Below, one piece after another: positions 1-26,819 of a stretch of DNA of 64,000 bases (the stretch's first letter is position 1; every line of letters begins with the position of its first letter). The notes under the pieces were generated by a model. It was not told the DNA's origin. It made no database searches and saw only the letters and a list, made by a program, of their open reading frames with translations. This DNA comes from Candidatus Thorarchaeota archaeon (GTDB taxonomy: Archaea > Asgardarchaeota > Thorarchaeia > Thorarchaeales > Thorarchaeaceae), in NCBI GenBank assembly GCA_029855935.1, contig JAGSHN010000005.1, positions 142,396-206,395 of the forward strand, read 5' to 3'. A program made the translations under genes and the position numbers.

Positions 1-1813
1 AGTATACAAGAACGTGAGTTGCATTCCACATCTTGAATACGCGTAGCGACTCCGTCAGATTCAAGGCCATCAACGCATAGCCCATAAGAGCTATCTGCGT
101 CCTATTGTGAGTTGAGTTGTCGACTATTGTTCGCCCGCCACCAGCGCTATTAATCCAGTATCCATAGTCCCACCAGCTGGCAATCGTTGCTGTGGGCGGA
201 AGAACGTTCCTGATGAAGTTCATAGCGGTCTGCCAGTCAGTGTACTGTGCACCCTCGGCAATACTGCCAGATGCGAGCTCTGGACCACTGACCTGATTCA
301 CGGTATAGCTGACACCACCAAAGACTGCCATAGATAGGACTAGAGCAACAAAACCATAGGCCATCAGCGTGTGCTCCGATGTCAGAGAAGTGCTGACTCG
401 AAACCGTCTTCTCTCAAACACCGATTTCTCGGCAACTATCTTTGCATATGGCGACAGAGTCTGATGCACAGCCACAGCTGACAGGATGGCAACCCCTGGC
501 GCGAGAATCAGAGCCAACCGGATCATGCTTCCCGCAAAGTACACCGACGTGAGGCCATATAGAAGGATGAGCCAGTCCTCATCGTGGCCTCGCTTGTAGA
601 GGAAGTACATACCGAGCGGGAAGAAGAATATCAGCACCAGAAGCGTGTTGTAGAAGCTTGACCACGGGCTCGGGAGATGCTCTGCAACAGAGGCGAAGAT
701 CCGCTGGTCGAGCCTATAGAAGGGATTGATGACCGTCAGAAACTTGCCACCGATTCGGAGAACTGCGTTGGAATTGGCGGTTCTGATTGACAGGTCAGTT
801 CCACTCCCGTATAAGAAGTAGGCACCGACGGCAATCAACGGCATGATGAGGCCTATTAGGAGCGGCTTCATGTGCGGAGAGAGTGCTGCAGCCGTAGAAA
901 CACGATACCTCTCTATGCGTGTCCAGACCTCGTAGCTGGCAAGGAGCGCACCCACAGCAATCGGGGCCATATACGAGAGGGAGGTGATGTTCTCAAATCC
1001 GTTGCGAGGAACCAGTCCCCCGATGAATAGGCCCAATGATATCGTAATCATGTAGGAGGATAGAAGGCGCCGGCTGTACCGGCCTGCAACAAACATAAGG
1101 AATGCGTAGACAGCCAGAAGATCAACGAGGAAGTCAGCTGCGCCCCACGAGGCCATCAGATATCCGACCGATAGCCCCGCACCGACCGCAGAGGCAATCG
1201 AGTCGCGTTTGATGCTGCGAGTGAAGAAGAACAGACCGAGCACTATTGCGAAAACACCAATACACTCATTGTCAAAGAAGCCTTCCACAGTTCTCTGTAG
1301 GAAGGCGGGGAGATATCCCATGAACAGCGCAGTCAGAAGCCCTACGGTGTTGTTGTAGAGCTCGCGACCAAGAAAGAATGCAACAATTGTTGTCAGAGCA
1401 CCCATCAGAGCAGGCATGATCACAGAAACAAAGGTCACACTCACGTTGATTCCGAGAGCATGTGCTGCGAAGTAGAGGAAGGCGCTGGTGAATGGTACAC
1501 CAACATAGGTGGCCGTTGCAATGTCCCGGCCAAAGGGCATCCATGTCGTGTCATCGTACCAAGTGAAGAAGGCACCATATCCATGCTCTGAGATGTACTC
1601 AGTGACCTTGAGTTGGAACCAAGGGTCGAACGCGCGGACTATTGGCTGCCTATCGACAAGAGGAAGAAGCCGAAGGGCGAGTGACACGAAGAAAATTATC
1701 GTCAAGGCAACAATGACCATCACGGATCCTCGTGAGATCTTTGCTTTCGGACGGTGAAATACCTGGCGGAGAAATCTGCCTGCAGACCTCTTGAGCTTCC
1801 TGAATCGGGCCAT
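1..1813 (-). CDS. aglB: Oligosaccharyltransferase catalytic subunit AglB/STT3, eukaryote-like (3' end runs off window)
   Basis: Not in ORF track (no stop in window). Manual translation from ATG 1813: MARFRKLK...RAFDPWFQ...WYDDTTWMPFGR...GFFDNECIG...IFASVAEHLP...ASWWDYGYWI...VDNSTHNRTQI; many TM segments. Confidence 0.95.
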   Translation of the reverse strand, partial: MARFRKLKRSAGRFLRQVFHRPKAKISRGSVMVIVALTIIFFVSLALRLLPLVDRQPIVRAFDPWFQLKVTEYISEHGYGAFFTWYDDTTWMPFGRDIATATYVGVPFTSAFLYFAAHALGINVSVTFVSVIMPALMGALTTIVAFFLGRELYNNTVGLLTALFMGYLPAFLQRTVEGFFDNECIGVFAIVLGLFFFTRSIKRDSIASAVGAGLSVGYLMASWGAADFLVDLLAVYAFLMFVAGRYSRRLLSSYMITISLGLFIGGLVPRNGFENITSLSYMAPIAVGALLASYEVWTRIERYRVSTAAALSPHMKPLLIGLIMPLIAVGAYFLYGSGTDLSIRTANSNAVLRIGGKFLTVINPFYRLDQRIFASVAEHLPSPWSSFYNTLLVLIFFFPLGMYFLYKRGHDEDWLILLYGLTSVYFAGSMIRLALILAPGVAILSAVAVHQTLSPYAKIVAEKSVFERRRFRVSTSLTSEHTLMAYGFVALVLSMAVFGGVSYTVNQVSGPELASGSIAEGAQYTDWQTAMNFIRNVLPPTATIASWWDYGYWINSAGGGRTIVDNSTHNRTQIALMGYALMALNLTESLRVFKMWNATHVLVY

Positions 1814-2127
1814 AATGGGTGCGCTCTCCAATTCGTCTGGAATCATCGGCATCAGACTGTGGATGTGCTAAAAAGGTTGCGTTTGGAGGGGCACTTGTAC
1901 TAGGACTGCAAACAGCTGTCATGTAGAACTTCGTCGTTTTTGGAAATCTCGCGAGTGAATCATAGAGGCTCAAGGCAGAAAAGGAGTGCTACGATTCAGG
2001 AAGACAGGTGGCGAGCCAAGTCAGGGTGCAGATGACCGACGCCATTGGCACACGGTTGCCCACTGGATGGCTAATCAGTATCCAGCGATGTAGGAACACA
2101 GATAGAAGCGGTGAGAGAGGGAACAGG

Positions 2128-2155
2128 GTCGCCCCATCACGTGCCCCGGGGCGAC
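2128..2155 (-). terminator. GC-rich hairpin just downstream of gcvH
   Basis: GTCGCCCC-N12-GGGGCGAC perfect 8-bp inverted repeat 2 nt after the stop codon; no clear U tract. Confidence 0.35.
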
Positions 2156-2157
2156 TA

Positions 2158-2562
2158 CTATTCTTGCAGTTCCGCGATGTACTTGGAATACTCCTCACTG
2201 GTCATCAGAGATTTGAGGTCCTCTTCTAACTTGGATGGACGAATCTTGAACATCCATCCTCGACCGTACGGGTCCTCATTCACAATCTCGGGAGCATCTT
2301 CAAGTTCGGTGTTGACCTCGATGATCTCACCGCTGACTGGACTGAAGATGTCGGATGAGGCCTTCATCGACTCGACGAGCCCGCATTCTTCCCCCGCATT
2401 GACGACGGTCCCGACCTCACTTATCTCGACATAGGTGATCTCGTGAAGCGCGTGTTGGGCATGGTCGGTTATTCCAACAACGACCACTCCATCTTCAATT
2501 CGAGCCCATTCATGATCCTTCGAGTAGTAGAGCCCGTCAACGACCTTCTTTCCTTCGCTCAT
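2158..2562 (-). CDS. gcvH: Glycine cleavage system H protein
   Basis: YSKDHEW, GITDHAQ, lipoyl motif VESMKASSD, VNEDPYGRGW. Confidence 0.95.
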   Translation of the reverse strand: MSEGKKVVDGLYYSKDHEWARIEDGVVVVGITDHAQHALHEITYVEISEVGTVVNAGEECGLVESMKASSDIFSPVSGEIIEVNTELEDAPEIVNEDPYGRGWMFKIRPSKLEEDLKSLMTSEEYSKYIAELQE

Positions 2563-2633
2563 CAGAGTGCACCTTCGCTCTTGGCTGACGCACAAGGGTG
2601 CTTAAATGAGTTGCTGCAAAGCTAGCGGCCTAC

Positions 2634-3782
2634 CTACTGATTGCGCGCTTCACCATATCTCTGTGGGTCGTAGAATGGCCATTTGCGAGCCTCAGCACGT
2701 CTAATTCTGCCCTTGATGTCAACCTCTATAGTATCACCCTCGTCGACCGAGCCGGGTGAAACATAGCCCATACCAATGCCCTTACCGAGGATGGGTGAGA
2801 GCCCGCCACTTGTGACAACTCCTATTTCATTGCCATCCGACAATAGTCGATACCCCTGTCGTGGAATACCACGGTCCACCATCACGAATCCTATTCTTGT
2901 CTTGCGAATCGCCCCCTCTTTCTTGTGTCTATATACAACGTCATAGCCAATATAGTGGGGCTCGACCTTCAGCTTAACTGCATAGGGGATCCGTGCCTCA
3001 ATCGGCGATGTGTCCTCATCAAGCTCGTGACCGTACAGCACAAAACCAGCCTCGAGACGGGTCGAGTCGCGAGATCCAAGCCCACAGGGGCGCGCCCCAA
3101 GGTCTTCACCGGTTGAGAGTATTCTCTCCCAGAACTCTATTGCTTTCCTACGTCCCTCATCGTTGAAGGGAGTGTCAAGCAATAGAATCTCGCCACCAGC
3201 CTCACCAGTGTACCCAGTTCGGCACAAGTAGCAATCTTGGCCAAACAATGTCATCCGACTACAGCTGAAACGTGGAAGAGAGCGAACATCGGTGTTTGCC
3301 ATCCTTGAGAGAAGCTCAAGAGCGTTTGGACCTTGGACCGCAATCATGACAACCCTGCGCGACCAGTCCTCCAGATGGACATCGAACCCACTGGAATGCT
3401 CTTGGAGATGGCCCCAGATCTTGGAGGCATTCGATGCATTGGTGACCCAGATGAATTCGTGCTCGCCTACTCGATAGAGCATCAGGTCGTCTCGCACGCC
3501 GCCTCGCTCATTGAGACAGGTCGAGTAGTGTCCCATATTGATGCGCAACTTCCGGACGTTGTTTGTTGTCACGGTCTGCAGAAAGTCGACCGCATCGGGG
3601 CCAGATATGGAGAAGCGTGCCATATGGGTGGTATCGAATATTCCGACCGCCTCTCGAACCGCCATATGCTCCTCGCGAATATCGCTAAACCGGACTGGCA
3701 TCTCCCATCCTGCAAACTCTACGATGTCGCCATGCTTCACATGCCATTCGTATAGGTGAGTCCTCTTCAGACCTGTATTCAT
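2634..3782 (-). CDS. gcvT: Glycine cleavage system aminomethyltransferase T
   Basis: LKRTHLYEWH, FAGWEMP, RTGYTGE, GLGSRDSTRLEAG. Confidence 0.95.
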   Translation of the reverse strand: MNTGLKRTHLYEWHVKHGDIVEFAGWEMPVRFSDIREEHMAVREAVGIFDTTHMARFSISGPDAVDFLQTVTTNNVRKLRINMGHYSTCLNERGGVRDDLMLYRVGEHEFIWVTNASNASKIWGHLQEHSSGFDVHLEDWSRRVVMIAVQGPNALELLSRMANTDVRSLPRFSCSRMTLFGQDCYLCRTGYTGEAGGEILLLDTPFNDEGRRKAIEFWERILSTGEDLGARPCGLGSRDSTRLEAGFVLYGHELDEDTSPIEARIPYAVKLKVEPHYIGYDVVYRHKKEGAIRKTRIGFVMVDRGIPRQGYRLLSDGNEIGVVTSGGLSPILGKGIGMGYVSPGSVDEGDTIEVDIKGRIRRAEARKWPFYDPQRYGEARNQ

Positions 3783-3858
3783 AGGGGCACCACTGTATGC
3801 TCGGCCGGCCATGCTAGGTTTTAATTTCTTCCATTCTTGCGAAACTTGGCGAGCGCAG

Positions 3859-5088
3859 ATGTTGTATCAACGACAGGTACGTGTGAGGGACACATATGTC
3901 GGGCGTGACGCGCCCACGCGTCTAATGGCCGTTGTGAATGTCTCTAGCGAGTCGTTCTTTGCAGGCTCGGTAGTGGCCCCCGAGAGCATCGACAAGAGAG
4001 TGAGGCTGTTAGAGAGGCAGGGAGCAGAGATCATAGACATAGGTGGGGCATCCAGCGCGCCCACAGAGATCTATGGTACTGAGCATATCTCCGTCGAGGA
4101 AGAATTGAAACGGATACAGCGAGCAATGAGGGTTGCACGAGACGCAACCGACCTCCCCATCTCGATTGACACTAGCTCTGCAGATGTGGCAAGGTTGGCT
4201 CTGGACCTCGGTGCGGATATGGTCAATGATATCACTGGCCTCAAGGGAGACCCACAGATGGCACCTCTTGTAGTGAGAGAGGACGTTCCGGTGGTGATAA
4301 TGGCGAGCTGCAATGGGCCGTGCCAAGATGCAGAAACGACATGGATGGAAATGAAGAGGAGTCTTGAGCTGGCAGCACAGGCAGGAATTGATGATGACAA
4401 GATAGTCATTGACCCGGGCATAGGATTTGGGAGACCACCAGATGAGGACTTCCGGCTCATCAGGGAGTTGCCCATGTTTTGCACTCTCGGTCATCCGGTC
4501 CTAGTAGGAGTTTCTCGAAAGGCATTCATAGGAAGCCTTCTCAATCACCCGAACCCCGAGGACCGCCTCATAGGAAGTGTTGCCGTCACATCAGTCGCAG
4601 TCGCAAATGGCGCGGACATAATCAGGACGCATGATGTCGAGGAAACAAGGGAGGCAATACAGATAGGGCTGGCGCTTAGAAGACCTGAGATACGGAACGA
4701 GGAAACCGTCCTCCTTGACAATGTGGAAGAGCCTCAGCTGATCTCTGTGCTCGAGAGGATTGGTGTTGATCCGGAGATTAGAGGAAGATTGACGAAAAAG
4801 AGTGTCATGCTGAATCTGTTGATTGGAAGTGTTGCCACACCTGCCGCGCTCGTGATAAAGCAGGAGATGCTGGCATTGGGCGGCGATGCCGCCTACCACA
4901 GAGACGTTATTGACTGCAGGGTATCAGACACCACTCTCTTGATTGTGGGGACTCCATTGCAGTTGGAGAAACTAGGGAGGCGACTGCGAAAGATGAACTA
5001 CTTCGGATTGCCGAGGATTGCTGAACAGATTCGATATATCTTGGAGAAGAGAGAGGAGAGGGCGGTGGTCCCGGTTGGACTGGGCTGA
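3859..5088 (+). CDS. folP: Dihydropteroate synthase with C-terminal accessory domain
   Basis: MAVVNVSSESF, IDIGG, ISIDT, IDPGIGF, VGVSRKAFIG, IIRTHDV; extra ~125 aa containing IKQEMLALGGDAA. Confidence 0.9.
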   Translation: MLYQRQVRVRDTYVGRDAPTRLMAVVNVSSESFFAGSVVAPESIDKRVRLLERQGAEIIDIGGASSAPTEIYGTEHISVEEELKRIQRAMRVARDATDLPISIDTSSADVARLALDLGADMVNDITGLKGDPQMAPLVVREDVPVVIMASCNGPCQDAETTWMEMKRSLELAAQAGIDDDKIVIDPGIGFGRPPDEDFRLIRELPMFCTLGHPVLVGVSRKAFIGSLLNHPNPEDRLIGSVAVTSVAVANGADIIRTHDVEETREAIQIGLALRRPEIRNEETVLLDNVEEPQLISVLERIGVDPEIRGRLTKKSVMLNLLIGSVATPAALVIKQEMLALGGDAAYHRDVIDCRVSDTTLLIVGTPLQLEKLGRRLRKMNYFGLPRIAEQIRYILEKREERAVVPVGLG

Positions 5089-5809
5089 GTGGAAACCTCT
5101 GTATTTGCGGATAGTAGATATGCTTGGTCTCGATGTCGAAGCGGACAGGCGTGCCACTGCCATGTTGGATCGCCTGCTCGCTAGCCGTGACGTAGATGAT
5201 CTCGTGCAGAAACTCAGACGGACAATATATGATACGGAGGTCATAGTGTGTGGAGCTGCCCCCTCACTTGACGCCCATCTCAGGATGATCAAGGAACAGC
5301 ATTTCGCGGACGGGCGGGTGGTCATTGCAGCAGATGGGGCACTGGAGGCGCTGATAGGTGAGGAAGTCCATTGTGATATAGTCGTCACAGACCTTGATGG
5401 TGATCGGGGAGGGCTGATTCCCTCTACAAGACAGGGCACCCTTGCGGTAGTCCATGCACACGGAGACAACATCCCGCTCATACGAAGCGTTGTGCCGAGA
5501 GCATCTAATATCATTGGTAGTACCCAGGTTGAGCCGACTGAACATGTACATCTTTGGGGCGGTTTCACCGATGGGGACAGAGCATGCTATCTAGCGGCCC
5601 ACTACAGCCCACGCAAGATAATCCTAGCAGGCATGGACTTTGGGAGCATAGTTGGGAGATGGTCCAAGCCCGCGTGTGAGTCAGCGTCCCCAGCGAGCAG
5701 ACAAAAGCGTCTCAAGATGTCGATTGGGAGGTGGCTTCTCTCTACGATAGAGAAACGGTTTCACGTCCCTCTGACGTATGTTGACAATGAAACTGTGTTT
5801 CAGCGCTGA
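5075..5809 (+). CDS. mptE: 6-hydroxymethyl-7,8-dihydropterin pyrophosphokinase MptE (DUF115)
   Basis: IAADGA, VVTDLDG, VHAHGDN, GGFTDGDRA, GMDF; TTG start overlapping folP end. Confidence 0.9.
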   Translation: MDWAEWKPLYLRIVDMLGLDVEADRRATAMLDRLLASRDVDDLVQKLRRTIYDTEVIVCGAAPSLDAHLRMIKEQHFADGRVVIAADGALEALIGEEVHCDIVVTDLDGDRGGLIPSTRQGTLAVVHAHGDNIPLIRSVVPRASNIIGSTQVEPTEHVHLWGGFTDGDRACYLAAHYSPRKIILAGMDFGSIVGRWSKPACESASPASRQKRLKMSIGRWLLSTIEKRFHVPLTYVDNETVFQR

Positions 5810-6225
5810 GGTGGCAACTTGAGGCCGAAGAGATACGTCATTATGAGGTACGCAGCACCAGCGAGGATAGCACCAAGTATTAGGAGACGAGTCGCGTAAC
5901 CCGGCTGAAACACGTACTTCGAGGAGTAGTATATGAGGCCCAAGCCCAATGTCCCTATGAAAATAACCACCGACGCCACAAGGCCCTCCATTCCTAGCTG
6001 TACGTCAATTCCTCTCACAACAAGAATGGGCTCGCCATTGGGGCCACCAGCAATGGGCGGAGGAGTCTTCACCAGCGTGTAGATGTTTCCGCCGAGAACG
6101 AAGAGTATGGCAATGAACATGATTCCAAAGACCACTATGTCAGGAGGCCGTGTCGGCGTACTGAATCTCGGACGAGCTAGACGCATCCGAGGTCGAACTA
6201 TGAACTTGGGCCACCACATCTTCAC
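5800..6225 (-). CDS. OST3/OST6-family membrane protein, DC2/OSTC-like
   Basis: 141 aa, 3 TM; LGGNIY..V..PP, QLGMEGLVAS, C-terminal F..KLP match the DC2 pattern (recalled). Confidence 0.8.
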   Translation of the reverse strand: MKMWWPKFIVRPRMRLARPRFSTPTRPPDIVVFGIMFIAILFVLGGNIYTLVKTPPPIAGGPNGEPILVVRGIDVQLGMEGLVASVVIFIGTLGLGLIYYSSKYVFQPGYATRLLILGAILAGAAYLIMTYLFGLKLPPQR

Positions 6226-6406
6226 TTGGCAAACCTCAGGCTGCGAAATAGCGGTCGGCTTTTAAGAATATCGCGAGATGAGAAATCGCACTAGGGCAGG
6301 TCATGGCCAGATCACTCACCAGTGACACAATCACTTCGATAGTCCTTCAAGATACCTTCAACCACCACTCGCAACTATGGCCTCGTCATAACCAGGGGAG
6401 AGAAAG

Positions 6407-8533
6407 ATGGCGAAAGTCCTGATAATCTCAGAGAAGCCGGCTGCAGCCGAGAAAATAGCGTTGGCATTGGATGAGAAGCATGAACCAAAGGTCATCAAGG
6501 CCAGAGGAGCATCATACTATGAATGCGAGAGAAACAACGACACGCTCTTTGTTGTCTATGCACTTGGGCACCTGTACGAACTCAAGCAGACACAGAAGGG
6601 ATGGACGTATCCACGGTTCGAAACCAAATGGGTCCCAAAGTACGAGGTAGAAAAGAAGGCCACGAACGTCAAACCTGTCATCAGTCTCATCCGGAAACTG
6701 TCCAAGGAGTCTGATGCCTTTGTCGTTGCAACGGACTATGACATAGAGGGAAGTCTCATCGGATATCTCGCACTCAAGTACGCGTGCGGAGTCGACCTTC
6801 AGAGGGCAAGAAGAATGCGCTTCTCCACGCTCACCGTGGGAGAACTGGAGAGAGCCTATGTCAACGCTCTGCCCAGCCTAGACTTCCCGCTTGTACGTGC
6901 AGGCTGTCTGAGGCACAAGGTTGACTGGCTATACGGGATCAACCTAACTCGGGCACTGACACTATCAATCAAGAGAGCAGCAGGCTGGTTCAAGATTGTT
7001 TCGACTGGGAGGGTGCAGGGCCCGACGCTGGCGCTTGTGGCTGAACGGGAGAAGCAGATCAATAGCTTTGTTCCCACCCCCTACTGGGTCATAGTCGGCA
7101 GAGTGAGAGTCAATGACAAGACCATCGACATAGATTATAGACGGCAGCGCATCCAGACGCGAATGGAGGCTCAATCTGTCGTCAATGCGCTTCAAGGCAA
7201 GCAACTTACCGTGACGCAAGTAGAAAGCAAGAGAAGGAAGCTCGGCCCACCAGTACCGTTCAATCTCAGCGGACTCCAGAGCGAGGCATACAGGCACTTT
7301 GGCTTCAGGCCAAGTCGTACACTGGCGATAGCGCAGAAACTGTATCTTGATGCCCTCATCTCATATCCCCGGACATCGAGCCAGCAGATTCCCGACAGTA
7401 TAGATACTCGCAGTATATTGCGGCAACTGGGTGAACAGAAGAAGTATGCAAGAATCGTCGAAGAAGTGCTGCAAAGCGGAAGGGAGAGGCCAGTACAAGG
7501 GAAGAAGACGGATCCTGCACATCCTGCCATCCATCCTACAGGCAATGCACCAACAAGGAAATTGACACCAAGCGAGAGGAAGCTGTACGATCTGGTCGTC
7601 CGCAGGTTCGTTGCACTGTTCGGGAAGGATGCCCTGAGGGAGAGCGTGAGGGTGACTCTGAAGCACGATGAGCACATCTTCTACATCAGGGGACGACGCA
7701 TATTGGAGCGTGGCTGGATAGAATACTACGAACCATACGTTGAGATGGGCGAACGGGAGGTCCCGGCACTTGCAGAGGGCGATGTCTTGAAGATTGCGGA
7801 GGTAGTAGCCGAGGAGAAGACAACGACGCCCCCGCCGCGGTACAATCCTTCCAGTCTTTTGAAGGAACTTGAGAAGCAGGGCCTTGGTACGAAGGCCACG
7901 CGCGCCTCCATTGTCGACTCGCTAAAATCACGAGGCTACACTCTGAACGACAAGTTTGAGCTGTCGGCACTTGGCTACGCGGCATTTGAAACACTCGAAC
8001 GTCACGTTCCCGAGATCCTCTCGGCTGAGTTCACACGGAGGTTGGAGCGGCATATGGAGGAGGTACAACTGGGGAAACGCACAATGGAGGAGGTTCTCAA
8101 TGAGGCGGAGGCGACCCTTGGAAGAATCCTCGAACAGTTCAAGGAGAGAGAGGAGGCCATAGGCGAAGAGCTGGTTGCGGGACTCAGAGGCTATTGGAGA
8201 GAGAGGGAGGAGATTGGGCTGTGTCCGAAATGTGGTGAAGGAACCTTGGTCATCATACGCTCCCCAAAGACCGGAAAACGGTTTATCGGATGCTCAAGAT
8301 ACAAAGAGGGTGGCTGTGATGCGACATTCCCGCTACCTCAGAAGGGGACCATCACCCCCTTGAAGAAGAAATGCGAATACTGTGGGTATCAGATGATTAG
8401 GATCTCGCGAGGAAAGAGGGGGTGGGAAACCTGCATCAATTGGGCCCAGTGTCCGGGACGCCAAGATCAGCTCAAGCGGCTGAGAGAGCGACAACGTCAG
8501 GAGGAAACAAAGGAGGGCGACAATAGTGAGTGA
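6407..8533 (+). CDS. topA: DNA topoisomerase IA (archaeal Topo I/III) with C-terminal Zn ribbons
   Basis: IISEKP, ATDYDIEG, GRVQGP, catalytic ISYPRT, AHPAIHPT, GLGTKATR, CxxC ribbons. Confidence 0.95.
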   Translation: MAKVLIISEKPAAAEKIALALDEKHEPKVIKARGASYYECERNNDTLFVVYALGHLYELKQTQKGWTYPRFETKWVPKYEVEKKATNVKPVISLIRKLSKESDAFVVATDYDIEGSLIGYLALKYACGVDLQRARRMRFSTLTVGELERAYVNALPSLDFPLVRAGCLRHKVDWLYGINLTRALTLSIKRAAGWFKIVSTGRVQGPTLALVAEREKQINSFVPTPYWVIVGRVRVNDKTIDIDYRRQRIQTRMEAQSVVNALQGKQLTVTQVESKRRKLGPPVPFNLSGLQSEAYRHFGFRPSRTLAIAQKLYLDALISYPRTSSQQIPDSIDTRSILRQLGEQKKYARIVEEVLQSGRERPVQGKKTDPAHPAIHPTGNAPTRKLTPSERKLYDLVVRRFVALFGKDALRESVRVTLKHDEHIFYIRGRRILERGWIEYYEPYVEMGEREVPALAEGDVLKIAEVVAEEKTTTPPPRYNPSSLLKELEKQGLGTKATRASIVDSLKSRGYTLNDKFELSALGYAAFETLERHVPEILSAEFTRRLERHMEEVQLGKRTMEEVLNEAEATLGRILEQFKEREEAIGEELVAGLRGYWREREEIGLCPKCGEGTLVIIRSPKTGKRFIGCSRYKEGGCDATFPLPQKGTITPLKKKCEYCGYQMIRISRGKRGWETCINWAQCPGRQDQLKRLRERQRQEETKEGDNSE

Positions 8534-9096: not shown

Positions 9097-9172
9097 GCGT
9101 CAATCTCGACGCCCTACCAACTGTGAGACAATAGCATTATCAAGATGTTGCATGCCTATCCACGAGAGCCGA

Positions 9173-11908: not shown

Positions 11909-12619
11909 GTGATGACAGAGAGTAGTGTCCTCAGCTCGGGACTGGGCTGTATAGACAGACTTCTGGAGGGAGGTCTGAGGGGTGGACAACTGATTCATAT
12001 CTATGGAGAGGCTGCATCTGGAAAGAGCACACTTGCCTATGTCTTCATCAGGGCCGCGTACAGGATGGGCGGTGCGTCTGTCTTGCTGAACTGTGAAACC
12101 AGTTCGCCCGTCGAGCGGCTGGAGCAGGTCCTTGAACGACGAATAAGAGATGTACAGGACCACTTGCGTATCTTTGTGCCAAAGACCTTCGAGGAGCAGG
12201 CGGAGCTCATAGATGATCTCGACCTTTATCTGCCGGAAAATACTATGCTAGTAGTTGTTGACACACTGACCCGGCTGTATAGGGCTAGCCTAGAGGACAA
12301 GGAGAGCAATTATCGGATTCACAGAGAGCTGAACAGACAGATGGGAATATTGAAGGGCATTGCGACACAGCGTGGCCTTCCCGTGTTGGTGCTCAATCAG
12401 GTCAGAGCAGCTCTCAATGGTGATGAGAGCCGATTCGAGCCTGTTGCAAAGAGCATAATGGCATATTGGGCCGATGTCGTCATTCGAATGGAAGTTGGGA
12501 ACCTGCGAGGTGAGAGGATTGTGTCCCGTACGGACCGCAAAGGCAAGCGTTCCGTCTGCCGGTTGGTATTGACTCAAGACGGGCTCGTTACAGCAGGCTC
12601 ATCATATGAGAAAGAGTGA
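11909..12619 (+). CDS. radB: RadA paralogue RadB
   Basis: SSGLGCIDRLLEGG, Walker A GEAASGKST, LVVVDT, LNQV; no N-terminal HhH. Confidence 0.8.
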   Translation: MMTESSVLSSGLGCIDRLLEGGLRGGQLIHIYGEAASGKSTLAYVFIRAAYRMGGASVLLNCETSSPVERLEQVLERRIRDVQDHLRIFVPKTFEEQAELIDDLDLYLPENTMLVVVDTLTRLYRASLEDKESNYRIHRELNRQMGILKGIATQRGLPVLVLNQVRAALNGDESRFEPVAKSIMAYWADVVIRMEVGNLRGERIVSRTDRKGKRSVCRLVLTQDGLVTAGSSYEKE

Positions 12620-18020: not shown

Positions 18021-19784
18021 TTGCTCACGCTAGAGGAAACAATTCAATTGATTCTCAAGAACAGGACGGACTTGGATCGCAAGGCAGTCATGGAGATGAT
18101 AGAACAGAAGCGCCAACAGATGGGGCCCGAGTTAGTGAACGAGGAGTCTGCCGCAATGATTGTGGCGCGCGACTTGGGTATCGACCTCCACCAGATAACA
18201 GCGAGACCGCGCATGAAGATTGAGGACATCACGGAGGGGAGCAGAAGTGTCACTCTTACTGCGAAGGTGGTTGGAGTGGACACCGTGAGGGAGTTCTCCA
18301 GGAGTGGAGGAGGGACTGGCAGGGTCGCAAGTATCACTGTGGCCGACGACACGGGAAGAATAAGGGTCGTTCTATGGGACGAAACGACAAGACTTGTTTC
18401 AGATGGCCTGGTGACCGTAGGATCGTGGGTCCAGATACGGAACGCCTATGTAAAACAGGGATTGAGGGGCGCACTTGAGCTGAACATCGGACGAATGGGA
18501 GGAATAAGGGCTCTTGAGGATTACGAGATTGAGGAACTCGACATCGAAGTCGCCGATGCTGAAACCGTCAAGCTGGGAGAACTCAGGGAGAATATGTACG
18601 ACGTCGTTGTGGTCTTCGCGGTTCAGAGAGTATTTGGGCTATCCACGTTCACTAGGAAGTCAGATGGCAGTGAGGGAAAGGTGCTCAGCCTGATTGGCGC
18701 GGATGAAACAGGATCCGCGCGCATAGTATTCTGGGACGATCAAGCGGAGCAGATGAGAGATGTCGAGGAGGGTGAGGTGATACGACTCTCGGGAGCATAC
18801 ACAAGAAAGGGCAGATACGGCGACATAGAGGTACATGCCGGAAGATCGTCGCGGATTGACAGAGGACTGGACCAGAAGATTGAGGCCGTTGAAACTCCAT
18901 CCGCGAAGTTCCAAGAGATGGGGCTACAGCCAATCAAGAGCCTCTCCATTGAGATGAGGGACGTGGATATCGAGGGTAAAGTGCTCAAGATATTCCCCGC
19001 GACCACCTTTCAGAGAGAAAATGGAGAGGGGCGGGTTCAAAATATTCTCGTCACAGATGGCACGGGCACTGTCAGAGTGACATTCTGGAATGACGATGTC
19101 GACAAAGTGAAAGACCTACATGAAGGCGACATCATAAGAATCAGACATGGCTATATCAAGGAGGGGTTCAGGGGAGGAGTGGACTTTCAGGTGGGTCGAA
19201 GAGCCGAGATTGAGATAAATCCAAGAGGGACTGGCCTTGAGAACCTGGATTTGAGTCAGGTCGATCTCGTTCCCACCACCTTGGGAAACCGAGTGCAGAT
19301 CGCAAAGATTGACGAGAGCATGGAGGGTAAGAGTGTGGAGATAAGCGGCCTAATAATGACCGTTTCGCGGAGGAGCCCAATCTACGCAGCCTGTCCCAAC
19401 TGTAAGAAGAAGGTTGAGGAGGATGCACAGGGATACACCTGTCCAGTCTGTGGCCCAGTTCCTCAGCCAGAGTACCGTATGCTGTACAAGGTGACAATAG
19501 ACGACGGGACCAGTTCAATTCCGGTGACGCTCTTCGGACAGACTGCCGAGGAGTTGTTGGGCATGACTGCAGCAGAGGCGCATGAACTCATCACGAGGAG
19601 TGGGAAGGAGAGCGAGCCATTCGACAGGAACTCCCATCGAATGCTTGGAGTGCGCGTAGCAGTCAGAGGTAGAGTGACAAGGTTTCGAGACTCGTTGGAG
19701 ATCGCCGCCTCATCCCTAGCGTTTCCCGACATCATAAGAGAGATAGAGAGAGAACGAGAGAGGATTGGACAGCTCATGAGGTGA
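18021..19784 (+). CDS. rpa: Replication protein A large subunit (4 OB folds + Zn finger)
   Basis: Three D-x-TG..R...W OB folds plus OB-C with CPNC..CPVC and DDGT; C-terminal helix. Confidence 0.9.
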   Translation: MLTLEETIQLILKNRTDLDRKAVMEMIEQKRQQMGPELVNEESAAMIVARDLGIDLHQITARPRMKIEDITEGSRSVTLTAKVVGVDTVREFSRSGGGTGRVASITVADDTGRIRVVLWDETTRLVSDGLVTVGSWVQIRNAYVKQGLRGALELNIGRMGGIRALEDYEIEELDIEVADAETVKLGELRENMYDVVVVFAVQRVFGLSTFTRKSDGSEGKVLSLIGADETGSARIVFWDDQAEQMRDVEEGEVIRLSGAYTRKGRYGDIEVHAGRSSRIDRGLDQKIEAVETPSAKFQEMGLQPIKSLSIEMRDVDIEGKVLKIFPATTFQRENGEGRVQNILVTDGTGTVRVTFWNDDVDKVKDLHEGDIIRIRHGYIKEGFRGGVDFQVGRRAEIEINPRGTGLENLDLSQVDLVPTTLGNRVQIAKIDESMEGKSVEISGLIMTVSRRSPIYAACPNCKKKVEEDAQGYTCPVCGPVPQPEYRMLYKVTIDDGTSSIPVTLFGQTAEELLGMTAAEAHELITRSGKESEPFDRNSHRMLGVRVAVRGRVTRFRDSLEIAASSLAFPDIIREIERERERIGQLMR

Positions 19785-19880
19785 CGGACTGGATTCTCCT
19801 GTCAGCCACGACGACCCCGAGCAGAGAACGACTGGTGATGGCGGGGACTACATAGTCGGAGTGTAAAGATATCTCTAGCA

Positions 19881-21128
19881 TCACCTACTGGCCTCGACTA
19901 GGGACTGCAGACCCTCCAGAAAGACATCAACATCGTGCTGGTTATTATAGAGGTAGAAGCTCGCACGCGCCGTGCCTACAGTCGGAGGTATTCCTTCTTG
20001 ATAGTGGAACGGGTGGGCACAATGAGCCCCCGACCTTACCATCACCGCAAACTCGTCATTGAGAAACGTTGCAACATCGTGGGCCGAGCCCACCGTGTCT
20101 ACTCCGAATGTCACGAGACCAGTACGCACGTCGACATCGGTGGAACCTAGGATGTGCACGTGATCCATCTCCTTCATGCTCTTCAGTGCTCTCGCCAGCA
20201 GTCTTCGTTCGTGCCTCTCAATCTCATGCATCCCTATTGACAAGAGGTAGTCGGCAGCGGCACCAGCACCAATCGCACCCGCATAGTTCTGGAGACCCGC
20301 CTCAAACTTCTCCGGAGGCGGGAGATACTCGGGGATTATCCGACCATTCTCATATCGGACGTCAGCCACTGTGTCGCCACCCGTGAGAAACATGTCCATT
20401 GACTTGAGATGCTCAATCTTCCCGTAGAGAAGGCCCATTCCACTCGGACCACACATCTTGTGAACAGACAGCGCTGAGAAGTCAACATCCAATGCCTGTA
20501 CGTCCAATGGATGGTGTGGGGCATACTGAGCATCATCTGAAACAACAATGGCGCCTCGGTCGTGAGCTATCTCCACAATCTCGCGCAAAGGTGCCACAGT
20601 GCCTGTGACATTTGAGGAGTGGACGACGGAAACGATCTTAGTCTTACTGTCAATCGCCTCTTTCCAACGCTCTATGTCAAAGGTGCCATCACTACGAGCG
20701 GGGACTATCTCAATCCCGAGGCCATCTCGCCGTGCTCGTTCTACGAAGGGTAAGGAACCACTGTGATGCTCCAAGGAAGTTGTCACAATCTTTGACCCCT
20801 GGGGCAGGGGGAATGAGCGAGCCACTATGTTGAGGGCTTCAGTGGCATTGCGAGTCCAGATACATTCATCCTCGCGTGTGGCATTGATGAAAGAGGCCAT
20901 CTTCCTTCGGGCCTCCGCATAGGCGGCGGAAACCTCTTTCCCCAATGTATGGATACTGCGTCCTCCGCAAGCGGGAAACCTCAGATAGTATTCGTTCATC
21001 GCATCTATGACCTGCTGTGGCTTGAGGGACATGCAGGCGCTATCCAAGTACACGATTGGCCTGCCGTTGATCTTGCGTTTCAACGCAGGAAAATCGTCGC
21101 GTATCTGATTCCAATCGACCATGGTCAC
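19881..21128 (-). CDS. sufS: Cysteine desulfurase, SufS/CsdA group
   Basis: YLDSAC, NATEA, EHHS, SVHKMCGP (PLP Lys), RSGAHCA. Confidence 0.88.
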   Translation of the reverse strand: MTMVDWNQIRDDFPALKRKINGRPIVYLDSACMSLKPQQVIDAMNEYYLRFPACGGRSIHTLGKEVSAAYAEARRKMASFINATREDECIWTRNATEALNIVARSFPLPQGSKIVTTSLEHHSGSLPFVERARRDGLGIEIVPARSDGTFDIERWKEAIDSKTKIVSVVHSSNVTGTVAPLREIVEIAHDRGAIVVSDDAQYAPHHPLDVQALDVDFSALSVHKMCGPSGMGLLYGKIEHLKSMDMFLTGGDTVADVRYENGRIIPEYLPPPEKFEAGLQNYAGAIGAGAAADYLLSIGMHEIERHERRLLARALKSMKEMDHVHILGSTDVDVRTGLVTFGVDTVGSAHDVATFLNDEFAVMVRSGAHCAHPFHYQEGIPPTVGTARASFYLYNNQHDVDVFLEGLQSLVEASR

Positions 21129-21359
21129 TTACCTCACTATCGACCAGCGGTAGCCACCCTTGCCGAACCGCTTCGTTATCAGACCAAGTGATACCAGTTC
21201 ATTTGCCGCTGCAACAAAGGCGTCACCACCAGCACAGTCCGTACAGACCTCTGCAAATTCGGGACGCCGTGCCATCTCGAGAATCTCCGAGGTGGTGAGC
21301 GAACCGGCAGTTTCGAGAATCTTGAGTACACACTGGGCATTCCTAGACAGGTCGGACAT
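21129..21359 (-). CDS. Small winged-helix protein with CxxC
   Basis: MSDLSRNAQCVLKIL..LTTSEI..CTDC..LVSLGLI..GGYRW; abuts the sufS start. Confidence 0.7.
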   Translation of the reverse strand: MSDLSRNAQCVLKILETAGSLTTSEILEMARRPEFAEVCTDCAGGDAFVAAANELVSLGLITKRFGKGGYRWSIVR

Positions 21360-21524
21360 CTTGGAATGCCACGGGCCAAACAACAATATGAAGACTTCTG
21401 TCGAGCCAATGTCGATAGGCATTCTCGTTACCGAACAAAATCCTTAAATGAATGCCAGAGTGCGCAATAATGCTCCTTCTTGCAGGGCCCTCTGAACTTG
21501 TGGAAAATAGATAAGGTGAAGGAA

Positions 21525-21779
21525 TTGGGAAGACGACGACGACAAAAGGTCATTAGACGACCTCAGAAGAAGATCCCAGATGTGTATCCGTGCCCAGAGT
21601 GTGGTAACACAGCAATCAAGATTGAGCTGTACAAGGATAACAAGGTGGCACTCGTCAAGTGTGGCTCCTGTGGACTTGAAACGCTGATTGACGAGGTGAC
21701 CCCTCTGACTGAAGCAGTCGATGTGTATGGAACATTCATCGACAGGTACTATGAGGAGAGGCGACTCACGACCACATAG
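21525..21779 (+). CDS. elf1: Transcription elongation factor Elf1
   Basis: (L)GRRRR basic N-terminus, CPEC..CGSC, EAVDVY..FID; TTG start after an SD-like GGTGA. Confidence 0.9.
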   Translation: MGRRRRQKVIRRPQKKIPDVYPCPECGNTAIKIELYKDNKVALVKCGSCGLETLIDEVTPLTEAVDVYGTFIDRYYEERRLTTT

Positions 21780-21861
21780 GCACAGGGCGCACAGATAGAG
21801 TAGCCCAACGAAGTTAGCAACCGTTATAAGAGGACAGCAATCTCGCAGGAAACGATCTCCA

Positions 21862-21978
21862 ATGCAGGCTGAAGTCACAACACAAATCTTGAGCATTATT
21901 CTGACGGCTCTAGGTATCATTGCCCTGCTACTGATTCTAGGATACTCCATCTACGGCGAGGAGGAGGCACAGGAGTAA
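21862..21978 (+). CDS. 38-aa single-TM microprotein, OST4-like
   Basis: Manual translation MQAEVTTQILSIILTALGIIALLLILGYSIYGEEEAQE*; TTATAA at ~21824; fills an intergenic gap. Confidence 0.6.
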   Translation: MQAEVTTQILSIILTALGIIALLLILGYSIYGEEEAQE

Positions 21979-22011
21979 TACAAGAGAAGAGTAGGTGGGG
22001 GCTCGCCATCC

Positions 22012-22257
22012 TTGTGGTCGGAGATCGCAAGTGTGGTCAATAGATCATTCGAGCAGGCGGCCGCGCATCTGGCGAACTTGGGACCAGTGAGAAACATTAT
22101 CGATGACCTACTCAAAGAGAGTCGGTCCATAGAGGGGTTTCTCGCTCGGCTGGAGGAATACGAGCGCACAGGCCAGGATGTAACAATCAGAACAGACATC
22201 CGCATCCTCATCAATGAGATAAGACACATAATGGCGCAGCGGAAGGCAACAAGATGA
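22012..22257 (+). CDS. Small helical hypothetical protein coupled to lhr
   Basis: ATGA overlap with lhr; natural amphipathic composition. Confidence 0.6.
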   Translation: MWSEIASVVNRSFEQAAAHLANLGPVRNIIDDLLKESRSIEGFLARLEEYERTGQDVTIRTDIRILINEIRHIMAQRKATR

Positions 22258-25103
22258 CCTCGGCGTTTGGCCGCTTGAGTAGCGAGATTGTCGAGTACAT
22301 ATCGAGTGAGGGGATTAGTGAGCCGACGCCAATCCAAGAAACCGCAATTCCGCAGATTCTTGACTCAGACGACTGTTTCCTGCTCTCGGCACCTACTGGA
22401 ACTGGAAAGACCGAGGCCGCGCTACTGCCTCTGCTTCACAAGCTATCCGCGAGGATAGAGAAGGACGGAGGCATCTTTGGAATAGCGATACTCTACATAA
22501 CACCGCTCAAGGCCCTGAATAGAGATGTGTTCAAGAGAGTAAGGGGGCTCTGCGAACATCTAGGGGTCGGAATAGATGTCAGGCATGGAGACACGACCGC
22601 CTATGCCAGAAGAAAGCAAGCACTCTATCCTCCCAACCTGATGGTCACAACCCCCGAAACCCTTCAGGCAATCCTCCCGGGAAAACGAATGCGCTTTAAT
22701 CTGCGCAGTGTCACGGCGGTTGTAGTAGATGAGGTTCATGAGATTGCAGGGAGCAAGAGAGGGGTCCAGCTTGCTGTCGCACTGGAACGACTTGAGCATC
22801 TAGTAGGGCGGCCAGTGCAGCGGGTCGGACTCTCGGCGACTGTTGGAAATACGCGAGAGGTCGCCAGACTCGTGGGAGGTGTAGGAAGACCAGTCAAGAT
22901 GCTCTGGGCGGGATATGCCACCAGAGATCTGTCAATGAGAGTAGAGATGCCAGTTCCGACCGACAAACATCATCTGCTCGCCAAGCGATTGGCCTACCCT
23001 GCACACCCCATATCACGTCTCGATAGAATCAGGGAGCTAGTGGAGGGACACGAGAGCACGATAGTATTTGCGAATACACGGTCACTGGCCGAAACTATGG
23101 GGGCGAAACTAAGGCTTCTGGCGCCCTCACTGGAGTTCGAGGTCCATCATGGATCGCTCTCTAAGGATGCACGCCTTGCGGCAGAACACCGTCTAAGAGA
23201 GGGAGAGATAAGAGCGATTATTGCCACATCAAGCCTGGAACTGGGTATAGACATCGGCCAGGTCGATCTTGTGATTCAATATGGCAGCCCCCGAAACACA
23301 TCTAGGGCGGTTCAGCGGGTTGGAAGGGCAGGTCATAGAGTTGGAGGTAAGTCAGAGGGGGTGATCATTGCCACAGTCAACCTAGATGATGTCACGGAGT
23401 CGGGGGTGATACTCCGAAGAGCACGGGCGAACAGAATCGAGAGAACGCACGTGTTACGCAGGGCATGGGACGTATTGGCACACCAGGTGGCAGGCATTGT
23501 TCTAGAGCATAGAGCTATAGATGTCAGAACGATACTTCAGATTGTCAGAAAGGCGAGCCCCTTCAGAAACGTTTCAATGGCCGAACTGAATAGAATCATC
23601 GATTTCCTAGCCAAGCGAGGTATGCTGCGTCGAAACGAGTATGAGGTCAAGATGGGACCGCGCACCCGAGCGTACTACTATGAGGGGCTGAGCACAATTC
23701 CTGATGTCCAGCAAGTTATGGTTGTCGACAGCATCACACGATCCAGCATCGGAGTGCTGGACGAAGAATATGTGCGCGAGTATATTGACACAGGGTCGAC
23801 TTTCGTGATACGTGGACGCCCGTATGTTGTTGTTTCAGTCGACGACGAAGAGGTACTGTGTCAACCAATCGTTGGGACTGACCCCACCGCACCGCGTTGG
23901 ATTGGTGAGATGATACCTGTTCCATTCGAGGTCGCATGTGAGGTTGCGGACCTGTGGAATAAGGCTGCAGAGAGGAACGAGAGAGAAGTTCGCAGAGACA
24001 TCAAGAAGAGATACTGCCTAGAGGATGCTGCGGTGGGCTTTCTTCTGAGGGAGAGTAGGAGGGCCAGAGAGGAGCTGGGATGCCTGCCCTCAAAACGCAG
24101 GATTGTGATAGAACAGTTTCCGAGTGGTACTGTGATCCACGCCCCCCTTGGAACTCAAGGTAATGAAACTCTCGGGCTGATCGTGGCGGCAGTCCTTACA
24201 ACGCGGATTGGCTCTGAGATTTTGGTCGAACACGACCCCTACAGAATCCTCCTCGTATCGAGGGGCACCGTCGATGCGCAGGCCGTCAAGAGTATTCTTC
24301 GCACCTATGATCGAGAACAAATCAATGTGGTTCTTCGACTGGCACTCAAGAACACACAGACCTTTGCATCAAGATTCGTACAAGTGGCCCGGAGAATGGG
24401 GATAGTCAAGAGAAACGCAAGGCTGCGTGACATTCCGGTAGGGAGGCTGATCGAGAGCTACGTGGACAGTCCTGTGTTCGAGGAGGCTATGGAGGAAGTG
24501 TTGTCCGAAAAGATGGACCCTATGCTGATTGGAAACGTGATCGACCGTGTCCGAGAGGGTACTGTTGAGATTACTACGGTCAGAACCGAGAAACCCTCAA
24601 CTCTGGCAAGGCTGATAGTCGAGCACAAGACTCGATTCGAAATGATCACAGAGGTCACTGGCGAAGAGGATGTCCTGCGCCTCCTTGAGGAGCGACTGCT
24701 ATCAAGACGGATGAGATTGGTGTGTATGAGGGGGGACTGGGAGAGCATAAGAACGGTGTCCACCTTGGACGACACCGTCAGATGTACGAGATGTGGGTCG
24801 ACACTCGTTGCGGTGACCAACACCACAGACAAGGACTTGAAACAGCTGATTGCACGAGTGCAGAGGGGAGAGAGTCTCACTAGAAACGAGAGGAGAAGAT
24901 ACGAACGGGCCGCACTGTCATCTAGCTTGGTGGCAACATACGGCAAGGTTGCGGTAATGGTATTGGCTGGACGCGGAATAGGACCAGAAACAGCATCAAG
25001 GATTCTCAGGCCGGGAAATGTAGAGCACCGATTGACTCTTTTGAGGGCGGTGGCAAGAGCAGAGAGAGACTATGCACGAACCCATCAGTACTGGGCCAGA
25101 TGA
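22254..25103 (+). CDS. lhr: Lhr-family SF2 helicase with C-terminal Zn ribbon
   Basis: APTGTGKTEAA, TPLKALNRD, TTPETL, DEVH, SAT, HHGSLS, ELGIDIG, QRVGRAGH. Confidence 0.93.
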   Translation: MTSAFGRLSSEIVEYISSEGISEPTPIQETAIPQILDSDDCFLLSAPTGTGKTEAALLPLLHKLSARIEKDGGIFGIAILYITPLKALNRDVFKRVRGLCEHLGVGIDVRHGDTTAYARRKQALYPPNLMVTTPETLQAILPGKRMRFNLRSVTAVVVDEVHEIAGSKRGVQLAVALERLEHLVGRPVQRVGLSATVGNTREVARLVGGVGRPVKMLWAGYATRDLSMRVEMPVPTDKHHLLAKRLAYPAHPISRLDRIRELVEGHESTIVFANTRSLAETMGAKLRLLAPSLEFEVHHGSLSKDARLAAEHRLREGEIRAIIATSSLELGIDIGQVDLVIQYGSPRNTSRAVQRVGRAGHRVGGKSEGVIIATVNLDDVTESGVILRRARANRIERTHVLRRAWDVLAHQVAGIVLEHRAIDVRTILQIVRKASPFRNVSMAELNRIIDFLAKRGMLRRNEYEVKMGPRTRAYYYEGLSTIPDVQQVMVVDSITRSSIGVLDEEYVREYIDTGSTFVIRGRPYVVVSVDDEEVLCQPIVGTDPTAPRWIGEMIPVPFEVACEVADLWNKAAERNEREVRRDIKKRYCLEDAAVGFLLRESRRAREELGCLPSKRRIVIEQFPSGTVIHAPLGTQGNETLGLIVAAVLTTRIGSEILVEHDPYRILLVSRGTVDAQAVKSILRTYDREQINVVLRLALKNTQTFASRFVQVARRMGIVKRNARLRDIPVGRLIESYVDSPVFEEAMEEVLSEKMDPMLIGNVIDRVREGTVEITTVRTEKPSTLARLIVEHKTRFEMITEVTGEEDVLRLLEERLLSRRMRLVCMRGDWESIRTVSTLDDTVRCTRCGSTLVAVTNTTDKDLKQLIARVQRGESLTRNERRRYERAALSSSLVATYGKVAVMVLAGRGIGPETASRILRPGNVEHRLTLLRAVARAERDYARTHQYWAR

Positions 25104-25719
25104 CACGCGAGAACTAGTCGTCTTCGTAGGAAGAAGTAATGTCGGGAAGAGCAGTATCATCAGAGCCCTCACGGGGAAGCGGGTCCGTGTCGGAAAGCAT
25201 CCCGGCAGCACTCGCAAGTTCCTAGCTCTCGATATGGGGCCAGTCATCTTCATAGACATGCCCGGATTTGGGTATATGGCCAAGCAGAGCAGGACCAAGA
25301 TTGAGGAAACTAAGACAGCCATAGTCAGGTCTCTTGAGAAGCTTCAGGAGAGAATCGTATTGGGAGTTCTCATACTGGATGTTTCCCTATTCAGAGAAAT
25401 AGTAGAGAGATGGGAGCGGCGTGGAGAGATTCCAATAGATGTGGAGTTCTATGCGTTCCTCCACGAGGTGGCAAGACAGGTCATAGTTGTGGCCAACAAG
25501 ATCGATAAGGTGCGTAGACGCGATAGAGGGGACGTATTGAGTTACGTCGCTCAGCGTCTGACCGAGGCGATGCCAACAAAACAACTCAATCTTGTCGTGA
25601 CATCTGCGTCTAAGAAACACGGCATCTCAGAGCTGAGAGAGGCCATAGAGGCATGTCTTGATAGCGAGGGTGTTGGCATCCCGCGCTGGCCAGGGATTGA
25701 AGTTGATCAGAGCGACTAG
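25072..25719 (+). CDS. engB: GTP-binding protein EngB/YihA
   Basis: GRSNVGKSS, PGST, DMPGFG, NKID, SA. Confidence 0.9.
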   Translation: MHEPISTGPDDTRELVVFVGRSNVGKSSIIRALTGKRVRVGKHPGSTRKFLALDMGPVIFIDMPGFGYMAKQSRTKIEETKTAIVRSLEKLQERIVLGVLILDVSLFREIVERWERRGEIPIDVEFYAFLHEVARQVIVVANKIDKVRRRDRGDVLSYVAQRLTEAMPTKQLNLVVTSASKKHGISELREAIEACLDSEGVGIPRWPGIEVDQSD

Positions 25720-26819
25720 CGTCGTTTCCTCACAGAATAGTATATGACTCCGAGCATAAGAACGACCGACGATACTGTGAGCATAGGAGTGATCGCAGTC
25801 GGCGATTCGATGTGCTGCTCTGAGAGCCAGTTGAGGATGTTCATGAATAGGCGTGCATTGTCAGCAGTGTAGAACCACTTCATCTCCGAACGGGCGTCGG
25901 ACTCTGGAAGGTCAAGTGGTCGACCGGTGAACATTATGGTAGACCCCGATATGACAATACGACTACGACCATACTCGAATGCGGCAAGCCAAGGCGGGAA
26001 AGTACCGTTGATTGCCGAGTACGAATAGGGGCGCTCCTCAAACTCGGCCAGACTCATATTCGGAAACGAGATGTTAGCAAAAGAATACGGGCCCTTCCTG
26101 TACTGAGCAAAAGATGTGTCATAACCACGTGCAATCGCGCAGGAAACGTCAATGGGCTTGAGCGTAGCGGTCATCACGACCAGCTCATTGATGTCATTGA
26201 ATATTGGATGAGAGGTGTTCCAAGTGGTACTGTCCAACCGAATGACCTGAGGGCGCGTTTCATTGAGCGCATGCTCATAATCGAACATAGAGTCAGACCA
26301 GTATCTATCCTCCGTGGCATTGATGCTGAACCGCACACCAGACATGTTGAGAGCATCGAGAAGCCTGTTGACCGCGATATTGTCTCCTAGGTCCTGAAAC
26401 GGCTGTTCAGACCAGTATGTCGAGTTCTGATCGATTGCTGGATCTCCCATAATGAGCATGTCGCTCCCATTTTTGAGAAAGTCTGAGATGGCTCTAATCT
26501 CGGAGGGCTCGAATTCGCCGCTTCGGTCAGGATCCGCGATTATCAGAAGGTCGACATCGTTGAGGAGCGACTCATTGAGTGGGGAACCCTCGTGCACCTT
26601 GACGAGGTATCGCGTGGAGGCGTTCACCATATCGAGCATCAGCTTCAGACCGTTCTCTTCGTCGTCGGGAGCAAACTGTTGGAGATGGCTCGCGTCGTAC
26701 AGGACCACAATCGGATCCAACGTGGATTGGGCCCGAACGCCTAACGGGATGGACGACGCCATTGTCAGGGCAATAATGGCAATGGCAAGGAACTTTGACG
26801 ATCTACTGAGCCTCGACAT
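25716..26819 (-). CDS. Type I membrane glycoprotein with GIFT/WBP1-like (GATase-like) domain
   Basis: Signal peptide; VLYDASH, DLLIIADP, F..SEI.AI.DF...G..MLIMGD, SRIVISGS..MF, NARLFMNILNWL; C-terminal TM + RKRR; 11 NxS/T sequons. Confidence 0.7.
   Translation of the reverse strand: MSRLSRSSKFLAIAIIALTMASSIPLGVRAQSTLDPIVVLYDASHLQQFAPDDEENGLKLMLDMVNASTRYLVKVHEGSPLNESLLNDVDLLIIADPDRSGEFEPSEIRAISDFLKNGSDMLIMGDPAIDQNSTYWSEQPFQDLGDNIAVNRLLDALNMSGVRFSINATEDRYWSDSMFDYEHALNETRPQVIRLDSTTWNTSHPIFNDINELVVMTATLKPIDVSCAIARGYDTSFAQYRKGPYSFANISFPNMSLAEFEERPYSYSAINGTFPPWLAAFEYGRSRIVISGSTIMFTGRPLDLPESDARSEMKWFYTADNARLFMNILNWLSEQHIESPTAITPMLTVSSVVLMLGVIYYSVRKRR

Follow-up and report, generated by a model that had tools for sequence, protein, structure and literature searches.

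Human oligosaccharyltransferase (OST) complex OST-A holds the catalytic subunit STT3A together with OST4 and DC2 (6S7O, 8B6L), and yeast subcomplex II is made up of Stt3, Ost4 and Ost3 (6EZN, 6C26). In these structures OST4 is a single-pass protein of about 37 residues, and yeast Ost4 is nestled between transmembrane helices TMH1 and TMH13 of Stt3 (PMC7226087). Archaeal AglB, such as that of A. fulgidus and P. furiosus, is a single-subunit enzyme of the same catalytic family, with the WWDYG motif in common. Homologues of Ost1 and Ost3 have reportedly been known in Asgard archaea since 2017, from work of Zaremba-Niedzwiedzka and colleagues. Asgard homologues of all OST subunits have been described, with Ost4 and Ost5 in most Asgard classes and Ost2, WBP1 and Swp1 in Heimdallarchaeia only (Eme et al. 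2023, PMC10307638), and the OST1, OST3/6 and STT3 proteins of MK-D1 localise to the endoplasmic reticulum (ER) in human cells (PMC11417166). In this study, a window of 64,000 nucleotides (G000:C14:142396-206395) from a Thorarchaeota genome (2.97 Mb, 32 contigs, 97% complete) was analyzed, which carries genes for STT3, a 141-residue DC2/OSTC-type protein, a 38-residue membrane microprotein and a 367-residue GIFT-domain protein.

These four genes had been proposed, in a sequence-only reading of the window, to encode a dispersed multi-subunit OST. The open reading frames (ORFs) of all four were confirmed, and the interpretation held in part, namely for STT3, for the DC2-like protein and for the predicted placement of the microprotein, and failed for WBP1 and for sequence likeness to OST4. 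We favor, with moderate confidence, a reading in which STT3 associates with the DC2-like protein and the microprotein in a minimal equivalent of OST subcomplex II (STT3-OST4-DC2/Ost3), and the GIFT-domain protein probably stands outside this complex. For Asgard archaea most of these components have been published before, as a lineage-wide set that includes STT3, a homologue named 'OST3/6', Ost5 and an Ost4 claimed for most classes; the sequence-only reading had mentioned reports for some accessory subunits only, and its account was incomplete, since Eme et al. cover all of them.

STT3 and its candidate small partners

The STT3 gene lies on the minus strand at the left end of the window (positions 2 to 1852, the first 617 codons) and continues beyond it; the full gene (L001:67-2871:-) encodes 934 residues. 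The probable start is Met14 at position 1813, where relatives begin and where the sequence-only reading had also placed the end of the gene. The protein, which is single-copy according to a whole-genome search, matched the Pfam STT3 family (PF02516) with 173.9 bits against a cut-off of 24.5 (E 1e-50) and carries the WWDYG motif at residues 560-564. Among all solved chains its best match was human STT3A (299 bits, residues 44-685 versus 17-646), followed by STT3B (267 bits) and yeast Stt3 (252 bits), whereas solved archaeal AglB domains scored about 30 bits (<31), with those of Pyrococcus at 30 bits or less. Because of this gap between human STT3A and the solved AglB proteins, the thorarchaeal STT3 is, as judged from sequence, a eukaryote-type enzyme, in agreement with the earlier claim. 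It resembles human OST-A in that its closest relative is STT3A, and differs from single-subunit AglB both in being far closer to eukaryotic STT3 and in having conserved candidates for small partners. Approximately 185 additional C-terminal residues (about 750-934, encoded to the left of the window) are not present in the shorter Asgard STT3 proteins of about 740 residues. NxT sequons directly follow the WWDYG motif in thorarchaeal STT3, as they do in eukaryotic STT3.

The DC2-like gene (positions 5800 to 6225, minus strand) encodes a 141-residue protein whose N-terminus is basic and rich in proline and which has three helices in the membrane; a thioredoxin domain is absent. It matched Pfam OST3_OST6 with 34.9 bits (cut-off 27) over profile positions 183-288 of 294 only, which is the membrane half of the profile. 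A profile of 24 orthologues had a sole match in the PDB, human OSTC/DC2 (6S7O chain H; E 1.5e-7), collinear from residues 11-136 to residues 14-142 of 149, and did not match Ost3, Ost6, TUSC3 or MAGT1 in the PDB at E ≤ 10. An AlphaFold model placed the helices at residues 29-53, 71-103 and 108-136, and its top four matches by Foldseek were all DC2 chains, with 20-22% identity. VIA-align superimposed the model on DC2 with Z 7.7 (2.9 Å, 23% identity) and on helices 2-4 of MAGT1 with Z 7.5 (3.5 Å, 13% identity); many unrelated helical bundles aligned to this three-helix model at Z 7-8.5, so that a DC2-like fold alone does not discriminate. Assignment to OST3/OST6 (TUSC3/MAGT1) was rejected, as the protein has no thioredoxin region and three helices rather than four. 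These analyses showed that the protein is homologous to the three-helix module common to DC2/OSTC and to helices 2-4 of OST3/6, and that it is closest to DC2 in sequence and architecture. The earlier assignment to DC2/OSTC was thus borne out by sequence, architecture and fold: like DC2, the thorarchaeal protein has three helices, is devoid of a thioredoxin domain and is collinear with DC2 over its full length.

The only other OST3_OST6 match in the genome, on contig C12, is a plain soluble thioredoxin and was set aside, which indicates that the genome has no full-length OST3/6. The DC2-like form, with 140-200 residues, was found in 119 of 151 sampled Asgard genomes, and this type is therefore the protein that the literature names Asgard 'OST3/6'. 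Published reports use that name, whereas the architecture and the sole PDB match are those of DC2/OSTC; a search of the literature library used here found no paper making this point.

The gene for the 38-residue microprotein, the OST4-like candidate (positions 21862 to 21978, plus strand), occupies the gap 3' of a gene for an Elf1-like zinc-ribbon transcription elongation factor (positions 21480-21779, plus strand; Pfam 2.1e-17), a neighbor that was found in 16 of 17 related loci. The predicted protein consists of a single hydrophobic helix and an acidic C-terminal tail, and agrees with OST4 in size and topology, being single-pass and within 30-40 residues. The ORF was found in 23 of 24 and then in all 26 sampled genomes of the family, with 33-39 residues, an MQ start and an acidic end; orthologues overall have 31-44 residues, and weaker, partly syntenic ones, marked by an ILAY..EE motif, were found in Asgard families beyond this one. 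The ratio of nonsynonymous to synonymous differences per site (pN/pS) was 0.18-0.41, with synonymous sites near saturation. A TATA-like box, TTATAAG (positions 21824 to 21830, plus strand), is located 32-38 nucleotides 5' of the ATG, at the same distance in all 17 related loci. An exhaustive profile search with the microprotein returned 26 representative clusters, all of 29-53 residues and all unnamed. The 38-residue ORF is shown by these data to be a conserved, separately promoted coding gene.

Co-folding, which the sequence-only reading had suggested as a check, was carried out with STT3 (residues 1-755), the DC2-like protein and the microprotein, the latter being the scored partner, together with three controls. 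The interface score (ipSAE) between microprotein and STT3 was 0.78, compared with 0.00 for the best of the three controls; in calibration, 58 of 80 solved complexes had attained this mark, as had 2 of 110 mismatched pairs. Contacts agreed between runs to at least 90%, and the predicted local distance difference test (pLDDT) score of the partner was at least 76. The contacts fall on STT3 residues 41-67, 167-180, 463-474 and 495-518, and STT3 residues 44-62 and 496-514 are its first and last hydrophobic segments. Residues 3-15 of the microprotein lie by the outer helix ends and residues 24-33 by the cytoplasmic ends, so that the predicted orientation has the N-terminus outside and the tail in the cytoplasm. 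This predicted position corresponds to that of OST4 in the TMH1/TMH13 groove, and the orientation is also that of OST4, although the cytoplasmic tail of OST4 is basic or polar and that of the microprotein is acidic.

If the three proteins assemble, the microprotein would sit between the first membrane helix of STT3 and the last, with its N-terminus outside and its acidic tail cytoplasmic, and would stabilize STT3 as Ost4 does, a subunit that is also needed to recruit Ost3/DC2. The DC2-like protein would bind neighboring STT3 helices, and the assembly may also include an OST5/TMEM258 homologue whose gene is located on another contig.

The GIFT-domain protein and the rival explanations

The GIFT-domain protein (positions 25716 to 26819, minus strand), of a type designated P0004 here, has a signal peptide and one C-terminal helix followed by a basic tail (KRR). 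Its structural model (pLDDT 78) aligned with the GIFT domain of IFT52 at Z 22.1, with human OST48 (6s7o_G) at Z 20.0 (236 residues, 3.0 Å) and with yeast Wbp1 at Z 17.4, and ThuA/GATase1-like proteins came next at Z of about 15. The fold is thus common to the N-terminal domain of IFT52 (5FMS), the N-terminal domain of OST48/Wbp1, GldG (PF09822) and the 367-residue protein. Model residues 31-339 covered no more of OST48 than its residues 42-307, and are directly followed by the membrane helix (343-366); on the model, the protein therefore appears to consist of a single luminal domain, without the second one of OST48. It contains 11 N-x-S/T sequons, or 3.0 per 100 residues against a genome background of 0.47 (a sixfold excess), and eight of these were retained in 35 or more of 36 orthologues, which sets the protein apart from known GIFT-domain proteins. 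Such dense and conserved sequons fit a substrate of STT3. We propose that the protein is extracellular, heavily N-glycosylated and a member of a separate archaeal GIFT family, more likely to be a substrate of STT3 than a subunit of the enzyme.

The distribution of OST48-type proteins was surveyed in the 151 Asgard genomes. No OST48_N match was found in the genome studied here (Pfam, E ≤ 1), which agrees with the published restriction of WBP1 to Heimdallarchaeia. Asgard proteins of the OST48_N type were found at other loci in five genomes (G038, G141, G146, G100 and G051) that also carry the P0004 type. Those fetched and translated had 431-460 residues, with a signal peptide and a basic tail, and gave no match to the hidden Markov model (HMM) of the P0004 family at E ≤ 10. 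Because the OST48_N types occur at other loci and do not match this HMM, the P0004 family represents a separate clade. Two remote GIFT paralogues in the same genome (C21:268059-269207 and C21:274568-277105) matched the P0004 HMM at E 0.003 and 1e-4 and may be the genome's true GldG-like proteins.

In its fuller form, the sequence-only reading would make the GIFT-domain protein a WBP1/OST48 equivalent and the four proteins together a eukaryote-like multi-subunit OST docked on the translocon. The Z scores against OST48 and Wbp1 and the shared type I topology speak for this, as do sub-threshold OST48_N matches (16-24 bits) of some distant Asgard GIFT homologues and the location, in one other Asgard family, of a GIFT gene 1.4-7 kb from the DC2-like gene. 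IFT52, however, equals or exceeds OST48 as a match; the protein has neither an OST48_N match nor the second luminal domain; the Asgard proteins scoring above or close to the OST48_N cut-off are those at other loci in P0004-bearing genomes; DAD1 or ribophorin II partners were not detected in the genome by Pfam; and the nearest language-model clusters of the protein include euryarchaeal CGP-CTERM and DUF4350 proteins. We conclude that the GIFT-domain protein is not an orthologue of WBP1 and shares only fold and topology with it, and we consider the four-protein complex very unlikely; of the earlier claim, the GIFT fold and the type I topology remain. A function as GldG-like auxiliary component of an ABC-type exporter is suggested by a match to Pfam PF09822 (ABC_transp_aux; 46.2 bits, cut-off 34.7) and by the NCBI name of some orthologues, 'Gldg family protein'. 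There is, however, no ABC transporter gene adjacent to the GIFT gene, its neighbors being genes for a GTPase and an Lhr helicase and small ORFs of unknown function. GldG typically has two flanking helices, unlike the cleavable-looking signal peptide and single C-terminal anchor seen here. An exporter role thus appears unlikely, though slightly less so than a role as WBP1.

A more serious alternative concerns the microprotein itself. STT3 might function without partners or with the DC2-like protein as its sole one, and the 38-residue protein might be unrelated, for example an accessory of another complex, its placement on STT3 being a modeling artefact. A number of results weigh in this direction and against the proposed three-protein complex. 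Pfam Ost4 (PF10215) gave no match in the genome and, at E ≤ 10, none at the microprotein locus, two microprotein profiles (A2 and A5) did not find OST4 in the PDB, human and yeast OST4 did not stand out by score from 1418 membrane windows taken from this genome, and hhalign of the microprotein with OST4 gave a probability of 1.5%, in the same register as that of the sequence-only reading. Look-alikes of the microprotein in the ESM Atlas, the nearest by language model, are bacterial small membrane proteins (scores ≤ 0.83), not OST4, and its constant neighbor is the Elf1 gene rather than a glycosylation gene. The STT3, DC2-like and microprotein genes are not co-transcribed, and their synteny also takes in unrelated genes, for example a RadB-like paralogue. 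The co-fold result is a model and not a measurement, and it does not amount to proof because STT3-OST4 complexes have already been solved, so that the pass may stem from memorization of a helix occupying this groove; because the control partners folded poorly (pLDDT 26-39) and are perhaps not membrane helices; because the job, with three chains and custom alignments, differed from the calibration; and because the listed contacts included none between the DC2-like chain and the microprotein. On the other side stand the difference of 0.78 versus 0.00 for the best control and the contacts, which coincide exactly with the first and the last helix of STT3, the orientation being that of Ost4. Moreover, Pfam Ost4 was the best match of two distant microprotein orthologues (E 0.0073 and 0.17; 16.6 and 12.2 bits, under the cut-off of 25), and weak scores are to be expected in this family, since even the human and yeast OST4 proteins reach no more than 16.7 bits against each other; for this reason sequence tests have low power for OST4. 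Homology of the microprotein to OST4 is not demonstrable by sequence comparison, the likeness being not significant and no better than chance, and the co-fold supports binding of the microprotein to STT3 but does not show it. What persists of the proposed OST4-like microprotein is a real gene and a predicted position in the Ost4 groove, and an unrelated microprotein is, in our assessment, possible but less probable than the minimal complex of STT3, DC2-like protein and microprotein.

Gene neighborhood and other subunits

The statement that the four genes do not form an operon was correct, because housekeeping genes on both strands separate them. These encode GcvT/GcvH, FolP, MptE, topoisomerase I, Elf1, an Lhr helicase and a GTPase. 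A RadB-like gene (positions 11909-12619) is located between the DC2-like and GIFT genes of the window. An ORF of 81 residues (positions 22012-22257, plus strand) has no Pfam match; its end overlaps, in the sequence ATGA, the beginning of the gene for the 949-residue Lhr-type helicase, with which it may be co-translated.

Within the family the 27-kb layout is preserved, with about 20 kb between the STT3 and microprotein genes in at least 12 genomes, which amounts to general synteny. Gene proximity was therefore discounted as functional evidence, as the 27-kb region is syntenic throughout the family and contains housekeeping genes. STT3 and the DC2-like (OSTC) gene lie within 7 kb of each other in five Asgard families, a recurrent linkage that exceeds family-level synteny. 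In another Asgard family (L165:1729-5362 and L166:1794-4611), the genes for the DC2-like and GIFT proteins lie within 1.4-2.4 kb of each other and of a RadB/Rad51-like paralogue, which is unrelated and on the opposite strand. It seems that an ancestral DC2-like/RadB-like/GIFT cluster has been stretched apart in the window studied here. A search for related loci with the DC2-like alignment returned only Thorarchaeota.

A search of the remaining genome for further subunits, also suggested earlier, was successful for OST5 only. A homologue of OST5/TMEM258 with 70 residues and two helices is encoded outside the window on contig C13 (G000:C13:24488-24664; L025:1471-1683:+) and matched Pfam Ost5 with 29.2 bits (cut-off 27.4). 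Ribophorin I, DAD1 and the translocon-associated protein (TRAP) subunits TRAP-alpha and TRAP-gamma were not found in a whole-genome Pfam search, which divergent forms could escape; Ribophorin_II likewise had no Pfam match in the genome, in a search without a positive control that divergent forms could also escape, and KCP2 was not found by Pfam. A TRAP_beta-like match in a 573-residue frame was set aside, as this family also gives matches in ordinary archaea. Human and yeast OST reside in the ER membrane, whereas the thorarchaeal proteins would be located in the cell membrane, and KCP2, ribophorins, DAD1 and OST48 were not among the Pfam matches.

Significance for Asgard archaea

The idea of an Asgard OST core has been published, and the gains of the present analysis are narrower. 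One is a well-defined, conserved microprotein family that has had no name until now, together with the site on STT3 at which it is predicted to bind. The others are evidence for the DC2-like nature of Asgard 'OST3/6', and the correction that the thorarchaeal GIFT-domain protein is not to be counted as WBP1. It is conceivable, and is offered here tentatively, that the DC2/OSTC-type Asgard 'OST3/6', together with an Ost4 equivalent and an STT3A-like catalytic subunit, represents a pre-eukaryotic OST-A-like core, to which the thioredoxin-bearing OST3/6 was a later eukaryotic addition.

If STT3, the DC2-like protein and the microprotein do assemble, the resulting complex could be expressed and its structure solved. 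The core of the eukaryotic OST would then already have been a small complex of defined composition in Asgard archaea, consisting of a catalytic subunit, a stabilizing micro-subunit and the subunit through which, in animals, OST is connected with the translocon.

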